DNA from: an uncultured Dehalococcoidales bacterium | Lineage (GTDB): Bacteria > Chloroflexota > Dehalococcoidia > Lucifugimonadales > Lucifugimonadaceae | Reading direction: 5' to 3' | Length of the DNA: 24,570 nt | NCBI GenBank assembly: GCA_964440895.1 | Contig: CAYTXB010000001.1 | Location: 1-24,570, forward strand | Shown: one piece after another, positions 6,217 to 23,873 of the stretch | Layout: the number at the start of each line of letters is the position of its first letter | Position numbering within the stretch: position 1 is the first letter of the stretch | Position numbers and translations under genes: made by a program | Notes under the pieces: model-generated | Told to the model about the DNA's origin: nothing | The model's input: only the letters and a program-made list of their open reading frames with translations | Database searches by the model: none

Positions 6217-7272
6217 ATGCCAATTGAAGAAATAATTAATAGTAACTCAAATGAAAATAATAAAGTTGTTGAAAGTGCCGAGAAAAATGATTATATAAAT
6301 GATCTGAGGCCAAAAATACTTAAAGAATATGTTGGCCAAGACGATGTAGTAAACAGCCTTAAGACGGCAATTAAAGCTTCTGAAGCAAGAAAAGAGCCTA
6401 TGGAGCATGTATTGTTTCACGGTCCTCCAGGCCTAGGTAAAACCACTTTGGCTCATGTCATTGCAAAAGAAAAAAAATCTAATTTAGTTGTAACTTCTGG
6501 GCCTAGTTTGGAAAAGCCAGCAGATATTGTAGGTTTATTATCAAACTTATCTGAAGGAGATGTTCTTTTTATAGATGAAATTCATAGAATATCCAAAGGG
6601 GTTGAAGAGTATTTTTATTCTGCAATGGAAGATTTTAAAGTTGATTTCATAACCGGTTCTGGTACTTTCGCTAAAACGCTCACCTTTCCATTAAACAAAT
6701 TTACTTTAGTTGGTGCTACTACCAGAGTTGGCATGCTTTCATCACCTTTAAGAGATAGGTTTGGATTAACTTATCATCTGGATTTTTATGATATTACAGA
6801 TTTATCAACAATAGTTAAAAGATCCTCAAATATCTTAAAAGTTAAAATTGATGACACTGCTACAAAAGAAATAGCAATAAGGTCAAGAGGTACGCCTAGA
6901 ATTGCAAATAGATTATTAAGAAGGGTAAGAGATTATCATCAAGTAAACTCAGACATTAAAATTATTGATGGTAATTTAGCTTCTGAAGCAATGGAACTAG
7001 AAGGTGTAGATTATAAAGGTCTTGATAGGCTAGATAGGCAATATTTAATAACATTATCTAAAAATTACAATGGGGGTCCAGCTGGAATTGAAGCTTTAGC
7101 TGCAACTTTAAATGAAGAATCACAAACTTTAATGGATGTGGTTGAGCCCTATCTATTAAAAATTGGCTTTATAATCAGGACTCCATCTGGAAGAAAAGTT
7201 ACTATTGATGGATTGAAATATGCTGGCATTGAAGTCAGAAAAAAAGACGAAAATCAGAAAAGAATGTTTTAA
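6217..7272 (+). CDS. ruvB: Holliday junction branch-migration ATPase RuvB
   Basis: LRPKILKEYVGQ, HVLFHGPPGLGKTTLA, LFIDEIHR, FTLVGATTR, PLRDRFG, SRGTPRIANRLLRRVRD, GFIIRTPSGR. Confidence 0.98.
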   Translation: MPIEEIINSNSNENNKVVESAEKNDYINDLRPKILKEYVGQDDVVNSLKTAIKASEARKEPMEHVLFHGPPGLGKTTLAHVIAKEKKSNLVVTSGPSLEKPADIVGLLSNLSEGDVLFIDEIHRISKGVEEYFYSAMEDFKVDFITGSGTFAKTLTFPLNKFTLVGATTRVGMLSSPLRDRFGLTYHLDFYDITDLSTIVKRSSNILKVKIDDTATKEIAIRSRGTPRIANRLLRRVRDYHQVNSDIKIIDGNLASEAMELEGVDYKGLDRLDRQYLITLSKNYNGGPAGIEALAATLNEESQTLMDVVEPYLLKIGFIIRTPSGRKVTIDGLKYAGIEVRKKDENQKRMF

Positions 7273-9077
7273 TTTAAATCATCAAATGATGATTCGTTGT
7301 TGCTCCACAATTTCCAGTATAAATTTTTATTAGATAATAATTGGTCATGATTTCCAATTTCAACAATTTCACCTTTGTTTAAAACAATTATTTTATCGGC
7401 ATTTTTAATTGTTGATAATCTGTGCGCAATGATAATCCCGGTTCTATTTTCTAAAACTTTATTAAGTGCGTTTTGAATTTGTCTTTCGGTATAACTGTCT
7501 ATATACGATGTAGCTTCATCAAGGATAAATATCTTTGTATTCAATAATAATGCTCTAGCAAAACTTAATAGTTGTCTTTGTCCAACTGATATATTTGCGC
7601 CTGATTCTTCAAGTACAGTGTCATATCCATTTGGCAAAGTCATAACGAATTCATGAGATCCTACAATTTTAGAAGCTTCAATTACCTCTTCTCTTGATGC
7701 TTGAGCTTTATATTTAATATTATCTTCAACTGTTCCAGAAAAAATAATAGGATCTTGAAGTACCATACTTATATTATTACTCAGTGAGCTTTGGGTAACT
7801 TCTTGGATATTCTGTCCATCAATTTTTATATTTCCATTTTTTATTTCATAAAATCTATGTATTAGGCTAGCTATACTTGTTTTTCCAGATCCAGTTGGCC
7901 CAACCAAACCAACAGTCTCATTCTCTTTTATTGAAAAATTTAAATTTTTGAGAACAGGCTCATTAAAATTGTATTCAAAATTTACGTTTTGAAATTCTAT
8001 ATTTCCCTTTTCAACATTTATATCTTTGGCGTCTTTAATATCTTTAATATCTATTTCAATATCTAGTAATTCAAAAATTCTATGCCCAGATGCCATAGCT
8101 CTTTGTAATGTGCTGTAGTGCATTGTAAGTGCTCTTATTGGGTCAAAAAATCTTTGTACATAAAGCAAGAAAGCTATCATTACTCCTATTTCAACTGAGC
8201 CACCTGAAACCAAATAGCCGCCCATTACCACAATCAAGGACATTGTTGCACCTACAAGCAATTCAACTGGAGGGTGTATTCCTGCACCAAATTTAGCAGC
8301 ATTATTACTATCTTTAAAATTAGTATTTACTTCACCTTCAAATCTTTTCTGATTAATATCTTCTCTGATCATATTTTGGGTTACTCTAACACCATTTACA
8401 TGTTCATTTAAAACACCATTTACAATAGAAGAAGAAGATCTAGCCTTGAGAAAAGCTTTTCTTGCTTTGGGGAGCCAAAAGATTCTAAGAGCAAGGAAGA
8501 CCGGCATTATCATAAGTATTCCTAAAGCCATTGACCAATTTAATGAAAATATGATTACTGTAATAATAATAAGAGTTAACAAATCACCAACTGCAAATAC
8601 ACCAGCTTGAAATAATTCTTGAAGTGCACCGACATCTCCAAGGACTCTAGACATAATTGATCCATATTTACTTCTGTCAGCCACTGACATTGACAATTTT
8701 TGTAGGTGCGTAAACATTTTTGATCTTATATCAAACAATATGCTCTCACCTATTTCTCTAATCACTCTTTGTTGAATGTAATTAGAGATAAAATGCATTA
8801 AAGCAAATCCAATCAAAATAATAAATAAGTTATTTAAAAGACTTTCATTGCTATCCGATATGGCATTATCAATTGTAAATTTAACTAAAAGAGGAACTGC
8901 TAAAACAGCCATAGTAAAAGTAACAACAGATATTACTCCAAGAAAAGCCTTTTTTTTGTATGGCTTTATAAAACCAACAAATCTTTTTGCCACTTCACCA
9001 TCATAAGAGGACAGCTGTTCCAGGTCTTCTTCTATAGCATTAGCAATTTTTTTACTTTTTGAAGCTGATGTTGCCAT
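7269..9077 (-). CDS. ABC exporter half-transporter (TMD+NBD), subunit with canonical Walker B Glu and H-loop
   Basis: N-terminal TM helices; GPTGSGKT Walker A; LQDP Q-loop; ISVGQRQ signature; FILDEATS; IAHRLSTI. Confidence 0.95.
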   Translation of the reverse strand: MATSASKSKKIANAIEEDLEQLSSYDGEVAKRFVGFIKPYKKKAFLGVISVVTFTMAVLAVPLLVKFTIDNAISDSNESLLNNLFIILIGFALMHFISNYIQQRVIREIGESILFDIRSKMFTHLQKLSMSVADRSKYGSIMSRVLGDVGALQELFQAGVFAVGDLLTLIIITVIIFSLNWSMALGILMIMPVFLALRIFWLPKARKAFLKARSSSSIVNGVLNEHVNGVRVTQNMIREDINQKRFEGEVNTNFKDSNNAAKFGAGIHPPVELLVGATMSLIVVMGGYLVSGGSVEIGVMIAFLLYVQRFFDPIRALTMHYSTLQRAMASGHRIFELLDIEIDIKDIKDAKDINVEKGNIEFQNVNFEYNFNEPVLKNLNFSIKENETVGLVGPTGSGKTSIASLIHRFYEIKNGNIKIDGQNIQEVTQSSLSNNISMVLQDPIIFSGTVEDNIKYKAQASREEVIEASKIVGSHEFVMTLPNGYDTVLEESGANISVGQRQLLSFARALLLNTKIFILDEATSYIDSYTERQIQNALNKVLENRTGIIIAHRLSTIKNADKIIVLNKGEIVEIGNHDQLLSNKNLYWKLWSNNESSFDDLN

Positions 9078-12025: not shown

Positions 12026-12100
12026 TTGTCCCACTTTTCTAAGTTATATATCTATTTTACACAAATATTTAAATAATTGGAGTAATTTTTGATAAATTTT

Positions 12101-12117
12101 TTACAAAAACTTACAAA
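12101..12117 (+). repeat. Direct repeat TTACAAA x2 with 10-bp period in the divergent HesB/Lrp intergenic region
   Basis: TTACAAAAAC TTACAAAC is read directly at 12101-12118. Function unknown. Confidence 0.4.
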
Positions 12118-12140
12118 CGAAAATCGCAATATATGATATT

Positions 12141-12584
12141 ATGCAAAATGAAATTATGGATAAATTAAATAAAAATATAATCGAGATTTTAAAGTCTGAT
12201 GGACGAGTACCAAATGCTGAAATCGCAAGAAACTTAGGCGTCAGTGAAGGAACCGTTAGAAGAAGAATTAAAATTATGATTGAAGAAAAAGTTTTAAATG
12301 TATATGCAATTCCTGACCCAAAAAAAACAGGATATAATGAAGAAGCATTGATCGGTATACAAGTTGATCCAAATAAATTAGATCAGGTTGGTGAATCCAT
12401 TGCAGAACACGAATATGCAACATGGGTATCTAGAACTACTGGCGGTTTTGATATTTTTACATGGGTAACTGTACCTAATAGTAAAGAACTAACAAATTTT
12501 TTAACATATTTTTTAGGAAATCTTGAAGGAGTAAATAAAACTGAAACATTCATTAGTTTAGATGTTTTAAAGAGAGGATTATAA
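12141..12584 (+). CDS. Lrp/AsnC family transcriptional regulator
   Basis: MDKLNKNIIEILKSDGRVPNAEIARNLGVSEGTVRRRI HTH; C-terminal RAM domain (RTTGGFDI, GVNKTETFISL). Start may be ATG 12156. Confidence 0.93.
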   Translation: MQNEIMDKLNKNIIEILKSDGRVPNAEIARNLGVSEGTVRRRIKIMIEEKVLNVYAIPDPKKTGYNEEALIGIQVDPNKLDQVGESIAEHEYATWVSRTTGGFDIFTWVTVPNSKELTNFLTYFLGNLEGVNKTETFISLDVLKRGL

Positions 12585-13226
12585 ATGGTAACTTACAAAA
12601 AATATTCTAAAACGAAAGACAAGACTTTTTCAATTAAAAACTTATTCAATAGCGAAGATGCATTAATTGATCAATTTGTTAAATCAAATACTATCTTTAA
12701 TGCAACATTTCTAGTAGCTTTCTTTATTTTATTCCAATATTTATTGTCTCAAATAAGATTTTTCTTACCTGATAATCCAGTTCCAATAACGATGCAAACT
12801 TTTGGAATACTAATACTTGGTGGGGTTTATGGCCCAAGATTAACAATAATTTCTGTTCTTTCATATATGATAATTGGGATAGTAGGAGTGCCTGTTTTTC
12901 AAGGGAATAATGGAGGTATTGAATATTTCTTTGGTGTTACTGGGGGATATTTAATCGGGTTTATTTTTGCTTCTACAATTATTTCAGTTCTTTCAAATAA
13001 CGGATTAAAAAAAGGTTTATCAATATGGGCAATGATTATAGGAAACATATCAATATATGTTGTAGCCATAATATGGTTATCGATTTATGATTTTGGATGG
13101 CCAGAAAAAGGCAACTTATTTTCTCAAGCGGTCTACCCTTTTCTTATAGGAGATTTTATTAAATTAGTATTGGCTTCTTTATCAGTTAATATTCTCTGGA
13201 AACTATCAAAAAATTTAAAAAAATAG
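12585..13226 (+). CDS. bioY: Biotin transporter S component BioY
   Basis: PVPITMQTF, GIVGVPVF, GVTGGYLIGF, VYPFLIGDFIK; multi-TM protein. Confidence 0.92.
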   Translation: MVTYKKYSKTKDKTFSIKNLFNSEDALIDQFVKSNTIFNATFLVAFFILFQYLLSQIRFFLPDNPVPITMQTFGILILGGVYGPRLTIISVLSYMIIGIVGVPVFQGNNGGIEYFFGVTGGYLIGFIFASTIISVLSNNGLKKGLSIWAMIIGNISIYVVAIIWLSIYDFGWPEKGNLFSQAVYPFLIGDFIKLVLASLSVNILWKLSKNLKK

Positions 13227-13230
13227 GGAG
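13225..13230 (+). promoter_or_regulatory. Shine-Dalgarno site for aspS, overlapping the bioY stop codon
   Basis: AGGGAG lies 5 nt upstream of TTG 13236. Confidence 0.6.
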
Positions 13231-13235
13231 TAATA

Positions 13236-15026
13236 TTGTATAAAGACCGGGGCTGTGGGCAAGTAAATTTAGATAACGTTGACCAAATAATCAATGTAGC
13301 TGGCTGGGTTGATTCATGGAGAGATCATGGCTCATTACTATTCCTTGATCTCAGAGATAGTACTGGAACAATACAAGTTGTTTTTGATAAAAGCATAAAT
13401 AATGAAAATCATGAAATAGCTTCTTCAATTAGAAATGAATGGGTGATAAAGGTTAAAGGTATTGTAAAAAAAAGAATTGATGGTGCGGAAAATCCAAATA
13501 TACCTACGGGATTCATAGAGATTAGTGCTGATGAATTAACAGTTTTGAACCCATCAAAAACACCTCCATTTGAAGTAAATAATAAAAATATAGACGAAAC
13601 TACTCGGTTGAGGTACAGATACCTTGATCTTCGTTCAGATAAAATGCAAAATAATTTAAGATTAAGGCATGAATTAATTCTAGAGATTTGCAATTTTTTA
13701 AATAATAAAAGCTTTGTCCAGATTGAAACACCAATTTTAATTAAAAGTACGCCTGAGGGTGCTAGAGATTACGTAGTTCCAAGTAGAGTTCATCCCGGTG
13801 AATATTATGCCTTGCCTCAATCACCTCAACAAATGAAGCAAATGTTGATGGTCTCAGGATTTGAAAGATATTTTCAGATTGCTAAATGTTTTAGAGACGA
13901 AGACTTAAGGGCTGACAGGCAGCCTGAGCATACACAGCTTGATTTTGAGATGAGCTTTGTTCACCAAGAAGATGTACTATCGAATTGTGAAGATTTATAT
14001 TCACACTTAGCTGACAAATTTCAAAGCAAAAATATTGAAACACCTTTCCCTAGGATTAAGTATGAAGATGCTATTAATACTTATGGTACTGACAAGCCTG
14101 ATACTAGATTCGATTTGAATATTAAAATATTAGATAAAGAACTCTCAGAAACTGAATTTAATGTTTTTAATAACTCATTAAAAGATGGAGGAACTATAAG
14201 AGGGCTATCTGTCCCAAAAAATGAATCCATGACAAGAAAATTTTATGACAAATTAAATGAATTCGTTAGATCTATTGGCGGCGACGGAATTATACCTATA
14301 TCAATTGATAAAGAACTTTCTGGAATTGAATTTGAAGATATTAAAAGTCCAATAAGTAAATTTTTAAGTGTAGAACATGTTAAAAAAATATTTAATATTT
14401 TTAACTCAGATTCAGATGACGTTATATTAATTTGTGCAGGCAAAAAAAATATTGTTTTGGATTGCCTAGGCCAAGTACGAAATAAGTTGGCTAAAGATTT
14501 TGAATTAATTGATGACGAAAAATTAAATTTTTTGTTTGTAACTGACTTTCCATTATTTGAAAAAGATTTGGAATCTGGCAATTGGACAGCTATGCATCAT
14601 GTTTTTTCTTCTCCAAATGATGAAACAATTAAGTACCTTGATAGTGACCCAAGTAAAGTTATTGGAAACCTTTTCGACTTGGTATGTAATGGTGTTGAAC
14701 TTGGTTCTGGCAGTATCAGAATTCATGATAAAAAAACTCAGGAAAAAGTATTTTCTATTATTGGCTATAAAGATGATCAGATCCAAGATAGATTTGGACC
14801 ACTGCTAGAATCATTTGACTATGGCGCTCCTCCTCATGGAGGGATGGGGTTAGGCATTGATAGGTTAGTGGCAACATTTCTTAAAGAAAATTCTATAAGA
14901 GATGTAATTTCTTTTCCCAAAACACAGAGTGCTTCAGATTTATTATGGGGAGCACCTTCATTGATTGATGAAGATCAAAAAAAAGAACTTAGTATTAAAA
15001 ATATTGAAGAAGAAGGTAAAAATTGA
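13236..15026 (+). CDS. aspS: Aspartate-tRNA ligase, probably non-discriminating (Asp/Asn)
   Basis: RDHG, LDLRD, RLRYRYLDLR, STPEGARDY, ALPQSPQ, RYFQIAKCFRDEDLRADRQPE, GSIRIH, YGAPPHGG, GIDRL, FPKT; H31 and G83 present. Confidence 0.97.
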   Translation: MYKDRGCGQVNLDNVDQIINVAGWVDSWRDHGSLLFLDLRDSTGTIQVVFDKSINNENHEIASSIRNEWVIKVKGIVKKRIDGAENPNIPTGFIEISADELTVLNPSKTPPFEVNNKNIDETTRLRYRYLDLRSDKMQNNLRLRHELILEICNFLNNKSFVQIETPILIKSTPEGARDYVVPSRVHPGEYYALPQSPQQMKQMLMVSGFERYFQIAKCFRDEDLRADRQPEHTQLDFEMSFVHQEDVLSNCEDLYSHLADKFQSKNIETPFPRIKYEDAINTYGTDKPDTRFDLNIKILDKELSETEFNVFNNSLKDGGTIRGLSVPKNESMTRKFYDKLNEFVRSIGGDGIIPISIDKELSGIEFEDIKSPISKFLSVEHVKKIFNIFNSDSDDVILICAGKKNIVLDCLGQVRNKLAKDFELIDDEKLNFLFVTDFPLFEKDLESGNWTAMHHVFSSPNDETIKYLDSDPSKVIGNLFDLVCNGVELGSGSIRIHDKKTQEKVFSIIGYKDDQIQDRFGPLLESFDYGAPPHGGMGLGIDRLVATFLKENSIRDVISFPKTQSASDLLWGAPSLIDEDQKKELSIKNIEEEGKN

Positions 15027-16291
15027 AAATTGATAAAAGTAAAGTTGAAAATCAACAAATAACTCTTACTTTACATGTGGAAGAAAGTGAAATTGAGAAA
15101 TATTTAAACAGAGCTGCTCAAAAATTAAGTAATCAGTTAAAGATACCGGGTTTTAGAAAAGGGAAAGCTCCAAAATCAATAGTTGAAAAAATTGTAGGTA
15201 AAGAAGGTCTTATTGAAGAGTCGTTGCAATTCTCAGTTCCAGACTTAGTAAATAATGCTATTGAAAAAGAGGAGCTGGAAGTATTTGCAACTCCAAAAAT
15301 TTCAGTTTTGGATTTAGTACCTAAATTAAAATTAGAAGCTAAAGTCGCTCTAAAGCCAAATGCTAATTTAGGAAAAATTGATTCTATAAAATTAGAAATA
15401 AAAGAAGAAAAAGTAGGTGCAAAAGAAGTAAATAATGTTATCGAACAATCCAGAAATCAGCATGCTACTTGGGTGCCAGTAAAGAGAAAATCTAAAATGA
15501 GCGATTTGCTGTCTTTAGATTTTAAGTGTGAATCCAATGATGAGGTCATTATGGATCATAAATCAATTGAAATAATACTTGAAAATCAATATGAAGATAA
15601 TTTAAAAATGCCTGGACTAATGAAAAAACTTTGCGGATTAGCAGAAGATGGAAGTAAAAAATTTAAGCTAGACCTCCCCGATGATTTTTTTAATGAAAAA
15701 TTTCAAAATAGTACTGCAAAATTTGAAATTAAAATTGTTTCTGTTAAAGAAAAAAATCTTCCAGAAGTAGATGATAATTTTGCTAAATTAATGGATCCGT
15801 CAATTGAAAATATTAAAGATTTAAAAAAACAAATTAAAAAGAATCTAGAGTTAAGCTCAAAAAATAAATATGATCAAGATTTATGGGATAGCTTTATTGA
15901 AGACTCGATAAATATATCTAAATTTACTATACCTGAAATAATGCTAGAGCAGGAAACAGAAAATTTAATTAAGCAGCAGAAGGAAATGATAGAAAATCAA
16001 AAAATTGAATTTGATACTTACTTGGATGGCATTAAAAAGAGTGAGGAAGAATTTGAAAGTGAACTAGCTTCGTCTGCTGATTTAAGGCTAAAGAGAGCAA
16101 TAATTGTTGAAGAAATTATAACGCATTATGAAGTAGAAATTGATGATAAAATTATTAATGATGAATTAAAAAAGTTTAAAGAATTACAAAAAAATACTAA
16201 TTATTCTGATGACAGTATTAAAGAAGAAATTAAGTATCAGAAGAAAAGAGATGAAATAATAAAAATTATTAAATTAAATAACATAAAATAG
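15023..16291 (+). CDS. tig: Trigger factor
   Basis: IPGFRKGKAP ribosome-binding signature, FKBP-like middle domain, LPEVDDNFAK; TTG start overlaps the aspS TGA; lies upstream of clpP. Confidence 0.93.
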   Translation: MKIDKSKVENQQITLTLHVEESEIEKYLNRAAQKLSNQLKIPGFRKGKAPKSIVEKIVGKEGLIEESLQFSVPDLVNNAIEKEELEVFATPKISVLDLVPKLKLEAKVALKPNANLGKIDSIKLEIKEEKVGAKEVNNVIEQSRNQHATWVPVKRKSKMSDLLSLDFKCESNDEVIMDHKSIEIILENQYEDNLKMPGLMKKLCGLAEDGSKKFKLDLPDDFFNEKFQNSTAKFEIKIVSVKEKNLPEVDDNFAKLMDPSIENIKDLKKQIKKNLELSSKNKYDQDLWDSFIEDSINISKFTIPEIMLEQETENLIKQQKEMIENQKIEFDTYLDGIKKSEEEFESELASSADLRLKRAIIVEEIITHYEVEIDDKIINDELKKFKELQKNTNYSDDSIKEEIKYQKKRDEIIKIIKLNNIK

Positions 16292-16297
16292 TCATAG

Positions 16298-16324
16298 TTG
16301 ACATAGAGTGTATCAAGTTATAAT
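16298..16324 (+). promoter_or_regulatory. Candidate clpP promoter (TTGACA-15 nt-TATAAT) overlapped by inverted repeats
   Basis: Perfect TTGACA at 16298-16303 and TATAAT at 16319-16324 in the 68-nt tig-clpP gap. The spacer is only 15 nt. Confidence 0.55.
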
Positions 16325-16359
16325 ATACACATCGATATAGTTATTTACGAAAGGAACCA

Positions 16360-16962
16360 ATGAATTTACCTTCAAATATAATACCAACAGTTTTTGAATC
16401 AGGTGCAAGAGGTGAGAGAGCTTTAGATATATACTCTCTTCTTTTAAAAGAAAGGATAATTTTTCTTGGAACACCAATTAACGACCAAATTGCAAATTTG
16501 GTCGTTGCCCAATTGCTGTATTTAGCCAGAGAAGATGCTGACAAGGATATAAGTTTATACATTAATTCACCTGGAGGCATGGTTTATGCAGGTATGGCTA
16601 TATATGACACAATGCAGCATATTCCTTGTGATGTATCAACAATTTCGGTGGGTCTATGTGCAAGTTTTGGTACTGTCCTTTTAACTGCTGGAGCTAATGG
16701 AAAAAGATTTGCTTTGCCAAATTCAACTGTTCACATGCACCAGCCATTAAGTGGTGCACAAGGACAAGCTTCAGATATTGAGATCGCCGCAAAAGAAGTT
16801 TTAAGGCTAAAAGATCAGCTAACTAAGATTATTGCTAAACATACAGGTCAGAAAGAATCAAAAGTCACAAAAGACTCCGATAGAGATATATGGATGAATG
16901 CCACACAAGCTAAGGAGTATGGATTAATTGATGGGATACTTGAATATCCAGAATCAAAGTAA
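16360..16962 (+). CDS. clpP: ATP-dependent Clp protease proteolytic subunit
   Basis: [26 protein letters not shown] (Ser), HMHQP (His), DSDRD (Asp), AKEYGLID; SD-like AAAGGA at 16350-16355. Confidence 0.98.
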
Positions 16963-16973
16963 ATCAGACTAAT

Positions 16974-17177
16974 TTAAAATTCTTTATTTTCTAACTCTTT
17001 CTTAAGTTCAGTAATTTCTAATTCTGTTTCTTCAAGCAGTTGATTGCATTCTTTAGCTAGCTTTATGCCTTCTTTATATAGAATCTTTGATTGATCTAAG
17101 GTCAATTCTTCTTCTTCTAATCTTCTAACTGCCTTTTCTAGTTCTTTTAATTTGTCTTCAAATGAATTATCAACCAT
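16974..17177 (-). CDS. xseB: Exodeoxyribonuclease VII small subunit
   Basis: SFEDKLKELEKAVRRLE...LDQSKILYKEGIKLAKECNQLLEETE; directly downstream of xseA. Confidence 0.92.
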   Translation of the reverse strand: MVDNSFEDKLKELEKAVRRLEEEELTLDQSKILYKEGIKLAKECNQLLEETELEITELKKELENKEF

Positions 17178-18383
17178 TTATTCTCCTTTATCATTTTTTA
17201 CTTTAATTGCTTCTGCTTCAAGAGTCTCATTAGAATTTGAAATCAATATGTGGTCACCTTTATTAATATTTTTAAAATCTTTAATAATTGATTTATCAGA
17301 TTTTAACTGAGTTAAAAAAAATCCCTTTTCAAATACTTTATCAATATTTAAGTGGCTGAGGCTATTTTCAAGATTCAATAAAGTAAATTTAATTTCTTTA
17401 ATTTTTACATCTAAAGTAAGGTTTAAATTATCTTTAAGTGAGCTTATTTTAAGATTATTTATAGAAGTTTCTATTTTAAAATTTAAAATTCTATCCATAG
17501 ATAAAAAAAATCTATTTTTTAAATTTTCAACTTTTCCATTAAAAGATAGATTGAGTTCTCTTAGTTTTAAATTTATTGATTCTTTTAAAGAAGCAATGTC
17601 AGGTGAAATTATTTCAGCTGCAGCTGATGGAGTAGGGGCTCTTAAATCAGATACTAAATCTGAAATAGTAAAATCAGTTTCATGTCCAACAGCAGAAATT
17701 ATAGGTATTCTACTTTTAAATATTTCCCTAGCAACTATTTCTTCATTAAATGGCCACAAGTCTTCTATGGATCCCCCACCCCTTGCAAGGATAATTACGT
17801 CAATATTATCTAATTTATTCATTAATGAAATTGACTCTACAATTGAACTAGATGCATTTTCACCTTGAACTCTAGTGTCAGATATAATTAATTTTAAATT
17901 TGGATATCTTCTTTGAATGACATTAATAATATCTTGCAAAACAGACCCGGTTTTAGAAGTAACAATTCCAACTGTTTTAGGCATTTTAGGTATATCTCTT
18001 TTTCTTGATTCATCAAATAATCCTTGTGCTTCAAGTTCTGCTTTTAATTTTTCAAATTTTTGTTGAAGCGACCCTTCCCCCTGAACTTTCACACTATCAG
18101 CAATAAATTGAATTTCTCCCCTAGGCTGATAAATTGACATTTTTCCTTCTGCAATTACCTCATTTCCATCCTTTAAATTTTCTTGGCCAGCCCCTCCTCG
18201 AAAAAGTACACACCTTATTAAAGATTCATCATCTTTTATAGCAAAATAATGATGACCACTTGGAGGCGAGCTATGATTTGATATTTCACCTGTAAGCTGG
18301 AAAGAATTTAGATATTTATCTTGATTTAGTTTTTTATGAATATACTTTGTTAATTCGCTAGGAGTAAATGTTATTTCAGTCAA
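17178..18383 (-). CDS. xseA: Exodeoxyribonuclease VII large subunit
   Basis: TTG start; GEISN, SGHHYFAIKD, GLFDESRKR, VGIVTSKTGSVLQDI, VQGENA, ARGGGSIEDLWPFNEE, ISAVGHETDFTISDLVSDLRAPTPSAAAE. Confidence 0.97.
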   Translation of the reverse strand: MTEITFTPSELTKYIHKKLNQDKYLNSFQLTGEISNHSSPPSGHHYFAIKDDESLIRCVLFRGGAGQENLKDGNEVIAEGKMSIYQPRGEIQFIADSVKVQGEGSLQQKFEKLKAELEAQGLFDESRKRDIPKMPKTVGIVTSKTGSVLQDIINVIQRRYPNLKLIISDTRVQGENASSSIVESISLMNKLDNIDVIILARGGGSIEDLWPFNEEIVAREIFKSRIPIISAVGHETDFTISDLVSDLRAPTPSAAAEIISPDIASLKESINLKLRELNLSFNGKVENLKNRFFLSMDRILNFKIETSINNLKISSLKDNLNLTLDVKIKEIKFTLLNLENSLSHLNIDKVFEKGFFLTQLKSDKSIIKDFKNINKGDHILISNSNETLEAEAIKVKNDKGE

Positions 18384-18384
18384 T

Positions 18385-18951
18385 TTAATTATTTACTCTT
18401 TCAATATATTCTCGAGTTCTTGTATCGACTTTAATTTTATCTCCAGTATTTATAAAAAGTGGAACTTGAACTTTTAAATTTGTTGATAAAGTTGCTTCCT
18501 TGGTTACATTAGTAGCAGTGTCACCCTTTACAGCCTCGATAGACGACTTTACTTCAAGTATTACCGAAGATGGTAATTCTATATTTATTGGTTTATTTTC
18601 ATATATTAAGAATTCAACATATTGACCTTCTTCAATAAATTCAAGTGTGTCTCCTAAAAAATCCATGGTGAGGTTTATTTGGTCATAAGTTGTTGTGTCC
18701 ATAAAAGTAGCTTCTTTATCGTCGCCATACAGAAATTGAAATTGCTGCTTTTCTGTTCTTGCAAGTGTCAAAGGCCTGTTGCCTTGAACCTTTTTTTCCA
18801 TAATATTTCCATTTTTAATATTTTTTACTCTTAATGTTAAGGTTGGAGGAGCTTTTGGTGGTTTTCTGTGCTGCCATTCTACAACTTGATATAACTCATC
18901 ATCAATAATGAGAGTCATATTTTTCTTTAATTCACTTGAACTAATTGTCAT
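18385..18951 (-). CDS. efp: Translation elongation factor P with atypical loop (HRKPPKAPP)
   Basis: 188 aa; QFLYGD, FMDTTTYDQI, IELPSSVILEV, KGDTATNVTKEATLST, VQVPLFINTGDKIKVDTRTREYIER; directly downstream of the Xaa-Pro peptidase. Confidence 0.95.
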   Translation of the reverse strand: MTISSSELKKNMTLIIDDELYQVVEWQHRKPPKAPPTLTLRVKNIKNGNIMEKKVQGNRPLTLARTEKQQFQFLYGDDKEATFMDTTTYDQINLTMDFLGDTLEFIEEGQYVEFLIYENKPINIELPSSVILEVKSSIEAVKGDTATNVTKEATLSTNLKVQVPLFINTGDKIKVDTRTREYIERVNN

Positions 18952-20018
18952 TAGTAACTTTCCTTTTCTGCATGACTAAGTAATTTATTTCCATTATCTG
19001 TCATCAAAACCATATCTTCAATTCTGATTCCCCCCCAGCCATCAATGTAAATACCTGGTTCAATTGTATAAATCATTCCAGTCATAATCTTATTTTTACT
19101 ATTCGGACCGATTCCAGGATTTTCATGTATTTCAAGTCCTACTCCATGCCCTAAGCTGTGACCAAAATATTCTCCAAAATTTTCTTTTGATATTATGTCT
19201 CTTGAAATTTTATCAATCTCTTCTCCTGTCATTTCTTCGCGGGCTGTTTCGATAGCAATAAGCTGTGACCTTAAAACAATATTATAGATTTTCTTAAATT
19301 TATCATCTGGATTTCCTATAAAAATAGTTCTAGTTAAATCACTACAGTATCCTTTATATTTTGCCCCCATATCAATTGTTATAGCTTCATTTAATTTAAC
19401 TTTTTTATCAGTAGGTGAGTGGTGGGGTTTTGAACCATTTAGGCCTGAAGCTACTATAGTATCGAAAGATAAAGACTCTGCTCCTAAATCTCTCATCTTT
19501 TTTTCTATTTCCCATGCTATCTCTTTTTCAGTCATTCCTTCAGATATTTTTTTACTTACTGAATTAAATGCATTGTCACTAATTGAAATAGTTTCTTCAA
19601 TAATTTTTACTTCTGATTGGGATTTAATGACTCTTTCTTTAGTTATTTCATTAGAAAAATCTTTCCAGTCAAGTTTATCTTCAGACCTTTGTTTTAATTG
19701 ATTTAGCATATTTACAGACATATCATTTCCTTCGAAACCAATTAACTTGGATCCAATTTGTTTAGTAGAATTTACTAACCAATTGTCACCAGATTTTAGT
19801 TGGTAGATTTCATAATCTGGGCTCTCTTCTTGTGCCCTTACTGTATATCTAGAATCTGTAATTATTATTGATTTATTGTCATTAATTAATAAAAAAGCAA
19901 ATGTTCCGGTAAACCCTGAATAATACCTGATATTATCTTTGCTAGAAATAAATATAGTGTCTATATCAGTTTCAGATAAAGACTTTCTTAAATTATTTAT
20001 TCTTTTACTATATTCCAT
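18951..20018 (-). CDS. pepP: Xaa-Pro aminopeptidase/dipeptidase (M24B family)
   Basis: NIRYYSGFTG, TDSRY, DMGAKYKGYCSDLTRT, GHSLGHGVGLEIHE, TIEPGIY, GGIRIEDMV; metal ligands D, D, H, E, E are intact. Confidence 0.94.
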   Translation of the reverse strand: MEYSKRINNLRKSLSETDIDTIFISSKDNIRYYSGFTGTFAFLLINDNKSIIITDSRYTVRAQEESPDYEIYQLKSGDNWLVNSTKQIGSKLIGFEGNDMSVNMLNQLKQRSEDKLDWKDFSNEITKERVIKSQSEVKIIEETISISDNAFNSVSKKISEGMTEKEIAWEIEKKMRDLGAESLSFDTIVASGLNGSKPHHSPTDKKVKLNEAITIDMGAKYKGYCSDLTRTIFIGNPDDKFKKIYNIVLRSQLIAIETAREEMTGEEIDKISRDIISKENFGEYFGHSLGHGVGLEIHENPGIGPNSKNKIMTGMIYTIEPGIYIDGWGGIRIEDMVLMTDNGNKLLSHAEKESY

Positions 20019-20027
20019 AACTAATCA

Positions 20028-20468
20028 TTATTTTTTATAGATTTCTTCAAGAGCAAGCTCATAACCTTTTATGCCTTTTCCAGCAATCTGAGAAGTGCAA
20101 TAGTTTGGAAATATTGAGTTTCTTCTAAACTCTTCTCTTTCATGTATATTTGAAATGTGAACTTCTATGCAGTTTAATTTAGAGTCAATAAGAGCATCTA
20201 GCAATGAAAATCCAACAGTTGTTAGTCCTCCTGGATTTATAATAATAGCATGAGAATCTTTTGAATTGGATTGAATAAAATCAATTAAATCTCCTTCATG
20301 ATTAGATTGGAAAGATTTAATAACAAACTTGTCACCTAAATTATTTTTTTTAAGATTGTTAACAAGCATTTCTTCTACATCACCTAATGTTTTATTTCCA
20401 TATATTTCTGTATCTCTTTTTCCAAGCAAGTTAAGATTTGGCCCATTAATTAATAAAATATTTTTCAT
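20028..20468 (-). CDS. aroQ: Type II 3-dehydroquinate dehydratase
   Basis: INGPNLNLLGKRDTEIYG, FQSNHEGDLID, INPGG, EVHISNIHEREEFR, GKGIKGYELAL. Confidence 0.96.
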   Translation of the reverse strand: MKNILLINGPNLNLLGKRDTEIYGNKTLGDVEEMLVNNLKKNNLGDKFVIKSFQSNHEGDLIDFIQSNSKDSHAIIINPGGLTTVGFSLLDALIDSKLNCIEVHISNIHEREEFRRNSIFPNYCTSQIAGKGIKGYELALEEIYKK

Positions 20469-23780: not shown

Positions 23781-23873
23781 TGGCGGAGAGAGGGGGATTC
23801 GAACCCCCGGTTCCAATATTATTGGAACACGAGCTTTCCAGGCCCGCCTATTAAACCGCTCTAGCATCTCTCC
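23781..23873 (-). tRNA. tRNA-Ser, anticodon GGA, class II long variable arm, CCA encoded
   Basis: Reverse complement: GGAGAGA acceptor pairing with TCTCTCC, G73, CCA; anticodon stem CGGGC/GCTCG with loop CT-GGA-AA (anticodon at 23839-23837); variable arm GTTCCAAT-AAT-ATTGGAAC; T arm GGGGG-TTCGAAT-CCCCC. Confidence 0.98.

Follow-up and report, generated by a model that had tools for sequence, protein, structure and literature searches.

How an elongation factor P (EF-P) might act when its hairpin carries a lysine at the tip with no glycine on either side is the question raised by the locus described here. The usual EF-P tip is G-K-G or G-R-G. The gene concerned, efp, lies on the minus strand of a 24,570-nucleotide stretch of DNA (the window) from an uncultured Dehalococcoidales bacterium (contig CAYTXB010000001.1), and the tip that it encodes reads P-K-A-P-P. 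According to EF-P reviews, the hairpin reaches the CCA end of the tRNA bound in the P site, and about half of genomes contain EF-Ps of unknown modification type; how they work is one of the field's open questions. The PKAPP family presents a natural experiment, in which the tip lysine was kept, both glycines were removed and prolines were added. Its loop defines an uncharacterised, strictly conserved, lineage-wide subfamily of EF-P loops.

The EF-P gene and the register of its tip loop

The efp gene was taken from the list of open reading frames (ORFs) at 18385 to 18951, minus strand, with an ATG start and a TAA stop, and encodes a full three-domain EF-P of 188 aa. Residue n is encoded by position 18951-3(n-1) and the next two lower bases. 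Pfam analysis located domain I (KOW-like, EFP_N, PF08207, E = 1.8e-12) at residues 4-55 (18787 to 18942), domain II (OB, EFP, PF01132, E = 1.4e-15) at residues 70-122 (18586 to 18744) and domain III (Elong-fact-P_C, PF09285, E = 5.8e-24) at residues 130-185 (18397 to 18564), all on the minus strand. Domain III includes a K-G143-D-T145 loop and K151; across 53 aligned diverse EF-Ps, G143 and K151 were invariant and T145 nearly so. The protein reached 203.5 bits with the NCBIfam efp equivalog model TIGR00038 (cutoff 185.8) and also exceeded the cutoff of NF001810. The sequence and structural features that define the EF-P class were found together: a KOW-like and two OB domains within a single chain of about 185 aa that scores above a curated cutoff, and a 7-residue beta3-omega-beta4 loop with Lys at its centre. 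An AlphaFold2 (AF2) model based on the 53-sequence alignment had a mean predicted local distance difference test score (pLDDT) of 91, and Foldseek comparison of this model gave template modelling scores (TM) of 0.82-0.89 with solved EF-P structures and of 0.60-0.61 with EfpL.

The stretch from 18870 down to 18841 on the minus strand encodes H28, R29, K30, P31, P32, K33, A34, P35, P36 and T37, with Lys33 specified by an AAA codon at 18853 to 18855, exactly where the original prediction, made from the sequence alone, had read the loop H-R-K-P-P-K33-A-P-P-T from the ORF translation. HMMER alignments to the solved EF-Ps of C. thermocellum (PDB 1YBY), S. aureus (6RJI and 6RK3) and C. glutamicum (6S8Z) contained no gaps across the loop and set HRKPPKAPPTLTL of the window EF-P opposite HVKPGKG[AP]AFVRT, with K33 opposite the tip Lys. 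Because this alignment is ungapped, K33 is taken from it to be the canonical tip lysine of EF-P, corresponding to K34 of E. coli and K32 of Firmicutes and Actinobacteria. Relative to the canonical loop, Gly is replaced by Pro at -1 and by Ala at +1, Pro follows at +2 and +3, and no glycine is left, which bears out the earlier description of a retained lysine between Pro and Ala followed by Pro-Pro. P35 aligned with the proline that closes the actinobacterial PGKGP motif, and P36 comes in addition.

In the AF2 model, DSSP assigned strands to residues 19-29 and 37-44 and left residues 30-36, centred on K33, as non-strand. These correspond to the 7-residue loop K30-P31-P32-K33-A34-P35-P36 (18844 to 18864, minus strand), and mean pLDDT was about 92 over residues 31-40. 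A loop insertion of 2 residues, obtained by hand alignment to E. coli EF-P, was ruled out by the HMMER alignments and the AF2 model, which give the canonical length. The subfamily signature W26-Q-H-R-K-P-P-K-A-P-P-T-L-T-L40, running from the end of beta3 through the loop to the start of beta4, spans 18832 to 18876 on the minus strand. The DNA pattern for the motif had its sole match in the window at 18833-18876, with 0.00 matches expected in shuffles of the window.

Conservation and distribution of the PKAPP loop

Homologues were collected as the best 120 matches of a search of 5.8 billion proteins, and the loop was checked in matches P0001-P0079. These were picked by whole-protein similarity, so that constancy of the motif among them is not circular. 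All 71 matches that cover the loop contained W-Q-H-R-[K/Q/N]-[P/A]-P-K-A-P-P-T-L-T-L, save for a handful of single exchanges of Q27 or R29, at identities ranging from 98% to about 46%. The named proteins among them belong to metagenome-assembled genomes (MAGs) of Dehalococcoidia or Chloroflexota.

The original prediction had proposed that the motif be searched for and its taxonomy mapped. A degenerate DNA pattern for W-[Q/H]-H-x3-P-K-A-P-P-T-L-T-L, run over 185,579 species with one genome each, matched 117 stretches, of which 116 lay inside an EF-P ORF. All informative titles among the 117 refer to Chloroflexota, Dehalococcoidia, Dehalococcoidales, SAR202, TMED70 or UBA-numbered Dehalococcoidia MAGs or single-amplified genomes; one is given as 'uncultured bacterium'. 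The matches, none of them from an isolate, include some 30 chromosomes that are near-complete (2.2-3.5 Mb). Complete or near-complete chromosomes with the motif are, for example, OZ242166.1, OZ240225.1, OZ247429.1, OZ244831.1, OZ253938.1, OY821634.1 and CBDBCK010000028.1. In an uncultured ocean lineage of global abundance, the PKAPP loop is fixed across over 100 species. The species genome closest to the window was the SAR202 single-cell genome AG-893-A15, with 77% nucleotide identity and collinearity over 13.5-21.5 kb, and a protein identical to that of the window recurred in 200 or more assembly blocks, some of them from Tara Oceans samples.

Among the 116 species loci, the loop read RQAPKAPP in 95, RKPPKAPP in 16, RKAPKAPP in 2 and otherwise in 3. 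The window thus represents a minority sub-branch, found mostly in genomes of about 31% guanine-cytosine (GC) content. The earlier remark on 'four Pro in six residues' holds for this sub-branch only, as the family consensus RQAPKAPP has three. In 155 distinct family sequences, a set that was partly motif-selected (the pattern fixed positions 26-28 and 32-40, including the tip Lys), Q27 was present in 154 and R29 in 152, and W26, H28 and positions 32-40 were invariant. The invariant core in this set is P32-K33-A34-P35-P36-T-L-T-L, with Lys33 never replaced by Arg.

In the same set, no other segment of the protein was as well conserved as the loop, which gave the lowest entropy of any 9-residue window. 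Over residues 47-188, within-family identity fell to 35%, compared with a mean of 44% and a maximum of 59% to EF-Ps with other loops. With P32-L40 invariant against this floor of 35%, the hairpin has been kept fixed while the remainder of the protein drifted, and selection on it is strong. The hairpin was constant over genomes with a GC content of 0.27-0.67, and the window retains the Pro codons of the loop despite a genome of about 30% GC.

In an exhaustive phmmer run against 1.84 billion cluster representatives, 6,899 EF-P-like proteins were recovered. The 150 nearest representatives displayed dozens of loop types, for example PGKG, MGRG, PGNWR, TAQRR, MQQRA and RPRLA, and every one with a Lys tip outside the PKAPP family retained G-K-G. 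Within these 150, the PKAPP family is unique in keeping the lysine with both glycines lost. Non-canonical tips nevertheless abound among EF-Ps and are for the most part unstudied, which makes the PKAPP loop less of a surprise. One cluster representative (P0219) reads Q-A-P-Q-A-P-P, with the tip Lys changed to Gln; its C-terminal half is frameshifted, and it is probably a low-quality sequence.

A full-text literature search found no paper in which PKAPP occurs together with EF-P, and no treatment of EF-P loops of Dehalococcoidia or SAR202 beyond the report that Dehalococcoidaceae gained an EpmAB-type EF-P horizontally. A Herpetosiphon Arg-type EF-P is among those tested in PMC12931083. Sieber et al. 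(2024) tabulated the loops of 5,448 EF-Ps from RefSeq complete genomes; in the part of the table covered, Lys-tip loops were all x-P-G-K-G-x-x and none of PKAPP, PPKA, APKA, PKAP, PKAA or PGKA occurred, which is a weak negative. The suggestion that the loop represents an uncharacterised EF-P class agrees with the lineage-wide conservation and with the absence of the motif from the literature searched.

Known EF-P classes and the state of the tip lysine

By defining signatures the PKAPP EF-P lies outside the PGKGP, EfpL, EarP and eIF5A classes, and it is not assignable to the EpmA or YmfI class. PGKGP EF-Ps, which are unmodified and occur in Actinobacteria, Bacteroidota and others (C. glutamicum, PDB 6S8Z), share with the window protein the three domains, the 7-residue loop, the Lys tip, the proline flanks and the lack of a modifier gene nearby. 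The +2 Pro is common to both, with P35 opposite P34 of C. glutamicum (Foldseek TM 0.82). However, the signature P-G-K-G-P is replaced by P-P-K-A-P in the window and by A-P-K-A-P in the family consensus, so that both Gly are substituted (P32 and A34), the -2 position is Ala in most PKAPP members and an extra Pro stands at +3. Beta4 begins with T-L-T-L instead of F-V-R-T, and the PKAPP loop is found only in Chloroflexota. In E. coli, PGKGP EF-Ps are reported to be inactive without a positive charge at position 50 (10.1101/2023.09.18.558224); the window protein has M51 at the aligned position.

The best solved-structure matches (E = 8.5e-40 to 3.2e-36) were the Firmicute-type EF-Ps (KPGKGAA; PDB 1YBY, 6RJI and 6RK3), which are 5-aminopentanolylated via YmfI/GsaB/YnbB. 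They aligned ungapped over the full length in the same Q-H-x-K-P-x-K register, but carry G-K-G-A-A where the window has P-K-A-P-P, and no linked ymfI-like gene was found at the PKAPP loci. The beta-lysylated EpmA/EpmB-type EF-P of E. coli (KPGKGQA) shares the Lys tip and the fold (TM 0.83 to 6ENJ), and the transferred copies in Dehalococcoidaceae belong to the same phylum as the window. It differs in loop sequence, and the window and flanks yielded neither a single-domain tRNA-synt_2 gene nor a lysine aminomutase gene. EfpL (YeiP) is likewise a three-domain EF-P, a paralogue that works unmodified via an altered loop architecture, but its loop exceeds 7 residues and has an Arg tip. The window protein remained below the cutoffs of both EfpL models (121 bits with NF003392, cutoff 216; 107 bits with TIGR02178, cutoff 264). 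Its loop has 7 residues and a Lys tip, in agreement with the original prediction that it differs from the EfpL/YeiP Arg type. The rhamnosyl-arginine (EarP) type requires an Arg tip, whereas all 155 PKAPP sequences have Lys. The hypusine-bearing a/eIF5A proteins have two domains instead of three; the IF-5A model gave 25 bits against a cutoff of 138, eIF5A structures matched the window model with a TM of about 0.5, and no deoxyhypusine synthase (DHS) gene was found nearby.

According to the EF-P literature, the prolines that flank the tip of PGKGP EF-Ps stiffen the loop and so take the place of modification. By analogy, the explanation favoured here on balance, though by no means firmly, is that the PKAPP protein is a main EF-P whose rigid, glycine-free loop presents K33 unmodified. 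It would be the resident and probably sole EF-P of a low-GC marine SAR202-related Dehalococcoidia bacterium and would work like any EF-P. The proline-stiffened P-K-A-P-P loop would be at least as constrained as the PGKGP loop and could represent a second, independent solution with built-in rigidity. If active unmodified, the protein would provide a second design for an EF-P free of post-translational modification, which could serve in the engineering of polyproline expression, and would offer a test of the rigid-loop hypothesis that does not depend on PGKGP.

Several points weigh against this explanation. The scan covered the window and, in relatives, the 10 kb to each side of efp, and a distant epmA/epmB, ymfI, dhs, novel modifier or second efp may lie beyond them. 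A Lys-specific modification would likewise keep the Lys invariant and never replaced by Arg. The loop is not PGKGP, and the analogy to unmodified EF-Ps rests on one shared proline; its rigidity is read from composition and from a confident AF2 model. Finally, a single origin of the PKAPP family was not demonstrated by a neighbour-joining tree (residues 47-188, Kimura distances, unrooted), in which the exact PKAPP bipartition appeared in 36 of 100 bootstraps; midpoint and outgroup rooting of the same data were uninformative.

It is possible, although doubtful, that Lys33 is post-translationally modified after all, either by an enzyme without a previous link to EF-P or by a known enzyme whose gene is distant from efp, with the hairpin serving as the recognition surface of the enzyme. 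The tip Lys that is never Arg, the 15 contiguous conserved residues across both hairpin strands and the EF-Ps of unknown modification type in about half of genomes are in line with such a modification. Unmodified PGKGP EF-Ps, however, likewise keep an invariant Lys. In its most specific form, which we consider unlikely, Lys33 would carry a fourth kind of bacterial EF-P modification whose installer reads the W-Q-H-R-x-x-P-K-A-P-P-T-L-T-L hairpin, and the glycine-free loop would be a recognition element and not a substitute for modification. A modified Lys33 would point to a new modification pathway.

The genes around efp bear on this alternative. In the 24.5-kb window, annotated for xseB and for ORFs of 90 aa or more, no EpmA (tRNA-synt_2-only), EpmB (lysine aminomutase), EarP, DHS or linked YmfI-like reductase was found, and the sole tRNA-synt_2 protein is a full-length aspartyl-tRNA synthetase. 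The relatives examined also had no known modifier gene in the 10 kb to each side of efp. Since horizontally transferred EF-P modifiers usually share one operon with efp, this absence counts moderately against the known modifications. A short-chain dehydrogenase/reductase was considered as a ymfI-like candidate, but it occurred at only 16 of 117 loci and on the opposite strand, and was dismissed because it is rare there and such enzymes are ubiquitous.

The only conserved non-housekeeping neighbour is a PurN-related formyltransferase (Formyl_trans_N, 250-266 aa) that retains the catalytic N-x-H-P-A-L-P and D-x-G-P motifs and scores 68 bits with TIGR00639 (cutoff 150). It is encoded, for example, at 12100-12861, 6647-7393 and 12304-13047 of the loci L118, L121 and L128, respectively. 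The gene is co-oriented and located 3' of xseB in 47 of the 48 Q-A-type (Q-A-P-K-A-P-P) loci with enough downstream sequence, and directly 3' of efp in loci with a Gln tip. As installer of a modification on Lys33 it is nonetheless a long shot. It lies 3' of xseB in 2 of 5 K-P-type loci, the sub-branch of the window, and is missing from the other 3 and from the window itself. As it also accompanies an EF-P tip without lysine and lies close to purM/purH in L118, it is most simply regarded as a PurN variant.

A further alternative, which appears improbable, is that the PKAPP protein is a specialised second EF-P with an EfpL-like function and that a canonical PGKG efp elsewhere does the main job. 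About 11% of genomes carry two efp genes, usually with different tips, and one MAG, B89T3L11, yielded two family members. Still, the protein passed the EF-P equivalog model and failed both EfpL models, no PGKG match labelled Dehalococcoidia or Chloroflexota was present among the best 120 homology matches, and the motif occurred once per assembly except in B89T3L11. The gene also occupies the conserved primary aroQ-pepP-efp slot, and because the same locus holds efp orthologues with other tips in other Chloroflexota, it is likely the resident main EF-P as opposed to an extra paralogue. Judged from these sequence comparisons, the PKAPP protein is very probably a functional main EF-P, as the original prediction had considered probable from the aroQ-pepP-efp context, and the synteny is kept across the family and in other Chloroflexota. 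The two efp genes of B89T3L11, one Q-A-type and one K-P-type, are 63% identical and lie on two short contigs (L063:595-1326 and L089:1069-1629). Both being PKAPP-type, they fit bin contamination, the simplest explanation, better than a canonical gene with a special partner; a rare true duplication would be the alternative.

That the tip is relaxed or degenerate, in a streamlined genome poor in proline and with little need of EF-P, is very improbable: the 22 window proteins do have no PPP and just 9 Pro-Pro motifs among their 7,152 residues, at a GC content of about 30%, but degeneration would give variable loops, and the conservation data disfavour it, the loop being the most conserved EF-P segment and identical in relatives of up to 67% GC. 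Two of the 9 Pro-Pro motifs sit in the tip of EF-P itself (K-P-P-K and A-P-P-T), and the synthesis of this protein may itself depend on EF-P.

Gene order around efp

The window carries topA, xerC/D, aroQ, pepP, efp, xseA and xseB in this order, all on the minus strand. The type II 3-dehydroquinase gene aroQ (Pfam DHquinase_II) is located at 20028 to 20468 and pepP, encoding a Xaa-Pro aminopeptidase of the M24 family (Creatinase_N and Peptidase_M24), at 18951 to 20018. Downstream of efp follow the genes of the large and small subunits of exonuclease VII, xseA (17178 to 18383, TTG start; Exonuc_VII_L) and xseB (16974 to 17177; Exonuc_VII_S), the latter being the last of the co-oriented block. 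The pepP stop and the efp start share 1 nt (TAATG, 18949-18953), and the TTG start of xseA lies 1 nt past the TAA stop of efp (18383-18387). This overlap and this spacing suggest that pepP-efp-xseA-xseB form a tightly coupled operon.

ORF clustering over the 117 loci identified pepP as a co-oriented neighbour in 92, aroQ in 89, xerC in 89, xseA in 93 and topA in 64, and 20-kb views of three lineages displayed the same neighbour order. The conserved synteny in the family is dprA-topA-xerC-aroQ-pepP-efp-xseAB. In other Chloroflexota, an aroQ-pepP-efp or aroQ-efp-xseAB slot is occupied by an efp with a K-M-G-R-G-S-A (Arg) or K-M-Q-Q-Q-A-P (Gln) tip, and by gene position the efp genes of differing tips in this slot are orthologues, not paralogues. 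Together with the Asn tip (APGNWRA) of Chloroflexus, these share the aroQ-(pepP)-efp(-xseA) neighbourhood with the window but differ from PKAPP in tip residue and flanks, and are likewise uncharacterised. The Chloroflexota thus have unusually diverse EF-P tips (Lys, Arg, Gln and Asn) in one conserved genomic slot.

The Gln-tip efp at 6001-6558 of L120 and L121 (P0080 and P0081) lies in the aroQ-pepP slot and has the loop K-M-Q-Q-Q-A-P-T-L-T-L, of which the A-P-T-L-T-L half is common with the PKAPP family. In L120 (4600-5844), aroQ and pepP form one fused gene of 414 aa, whereas the near-identical assembly L121 (4316-5844) has two overlapping genes, likely an assembly or frameshift difference. 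The Arg-tip efp (K-M-G-R-G-S-A-Q) at 6001-6558 of L122 and L123 (P0082), which belong to the top homology matches, lies in an aroQ-efp-xseAB slot where aroQ overlaps efp and pepP is missing, and an entire shikimate operon is located upstream of it.

Compared with the GC-rich relative L128 (12304-18327), in which xseB, the formyltransferase gene, fer4, an Fe-S gene, bioY, aspS, tig and clpP were found, the corresponding part of the window (12141-17177) carries the bioY-aspS-tig-clpP block in inverted orientation, which brings clpP next to xseB. An lrp gene is present there, and the formyltransferase gene is missing. The remaining genes of the window comprise ftsK, nusB, fabD, ruvCAB, two ABC exporters, a GNAT gene and the gene of an Fe-S assembly protein, in addition to lrp, bioY, aspS, tig, clpP, xseBA, pepP, aroQ, xerC, topA and a hexapeptide transferase gene. 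Two ORFs at 16341-16580 (minus strand, 79 aa) and 17551-17868 (plus strand, 105 aa) run antisense inside clpP and xseA, respectively, and are most likely spurious. A tRNA-Ser gene (anticodon GGA) is located at 23781-23873 on the minus strand, between topA and the hexapeptide-repeat transferase gene, which runs off the window end.

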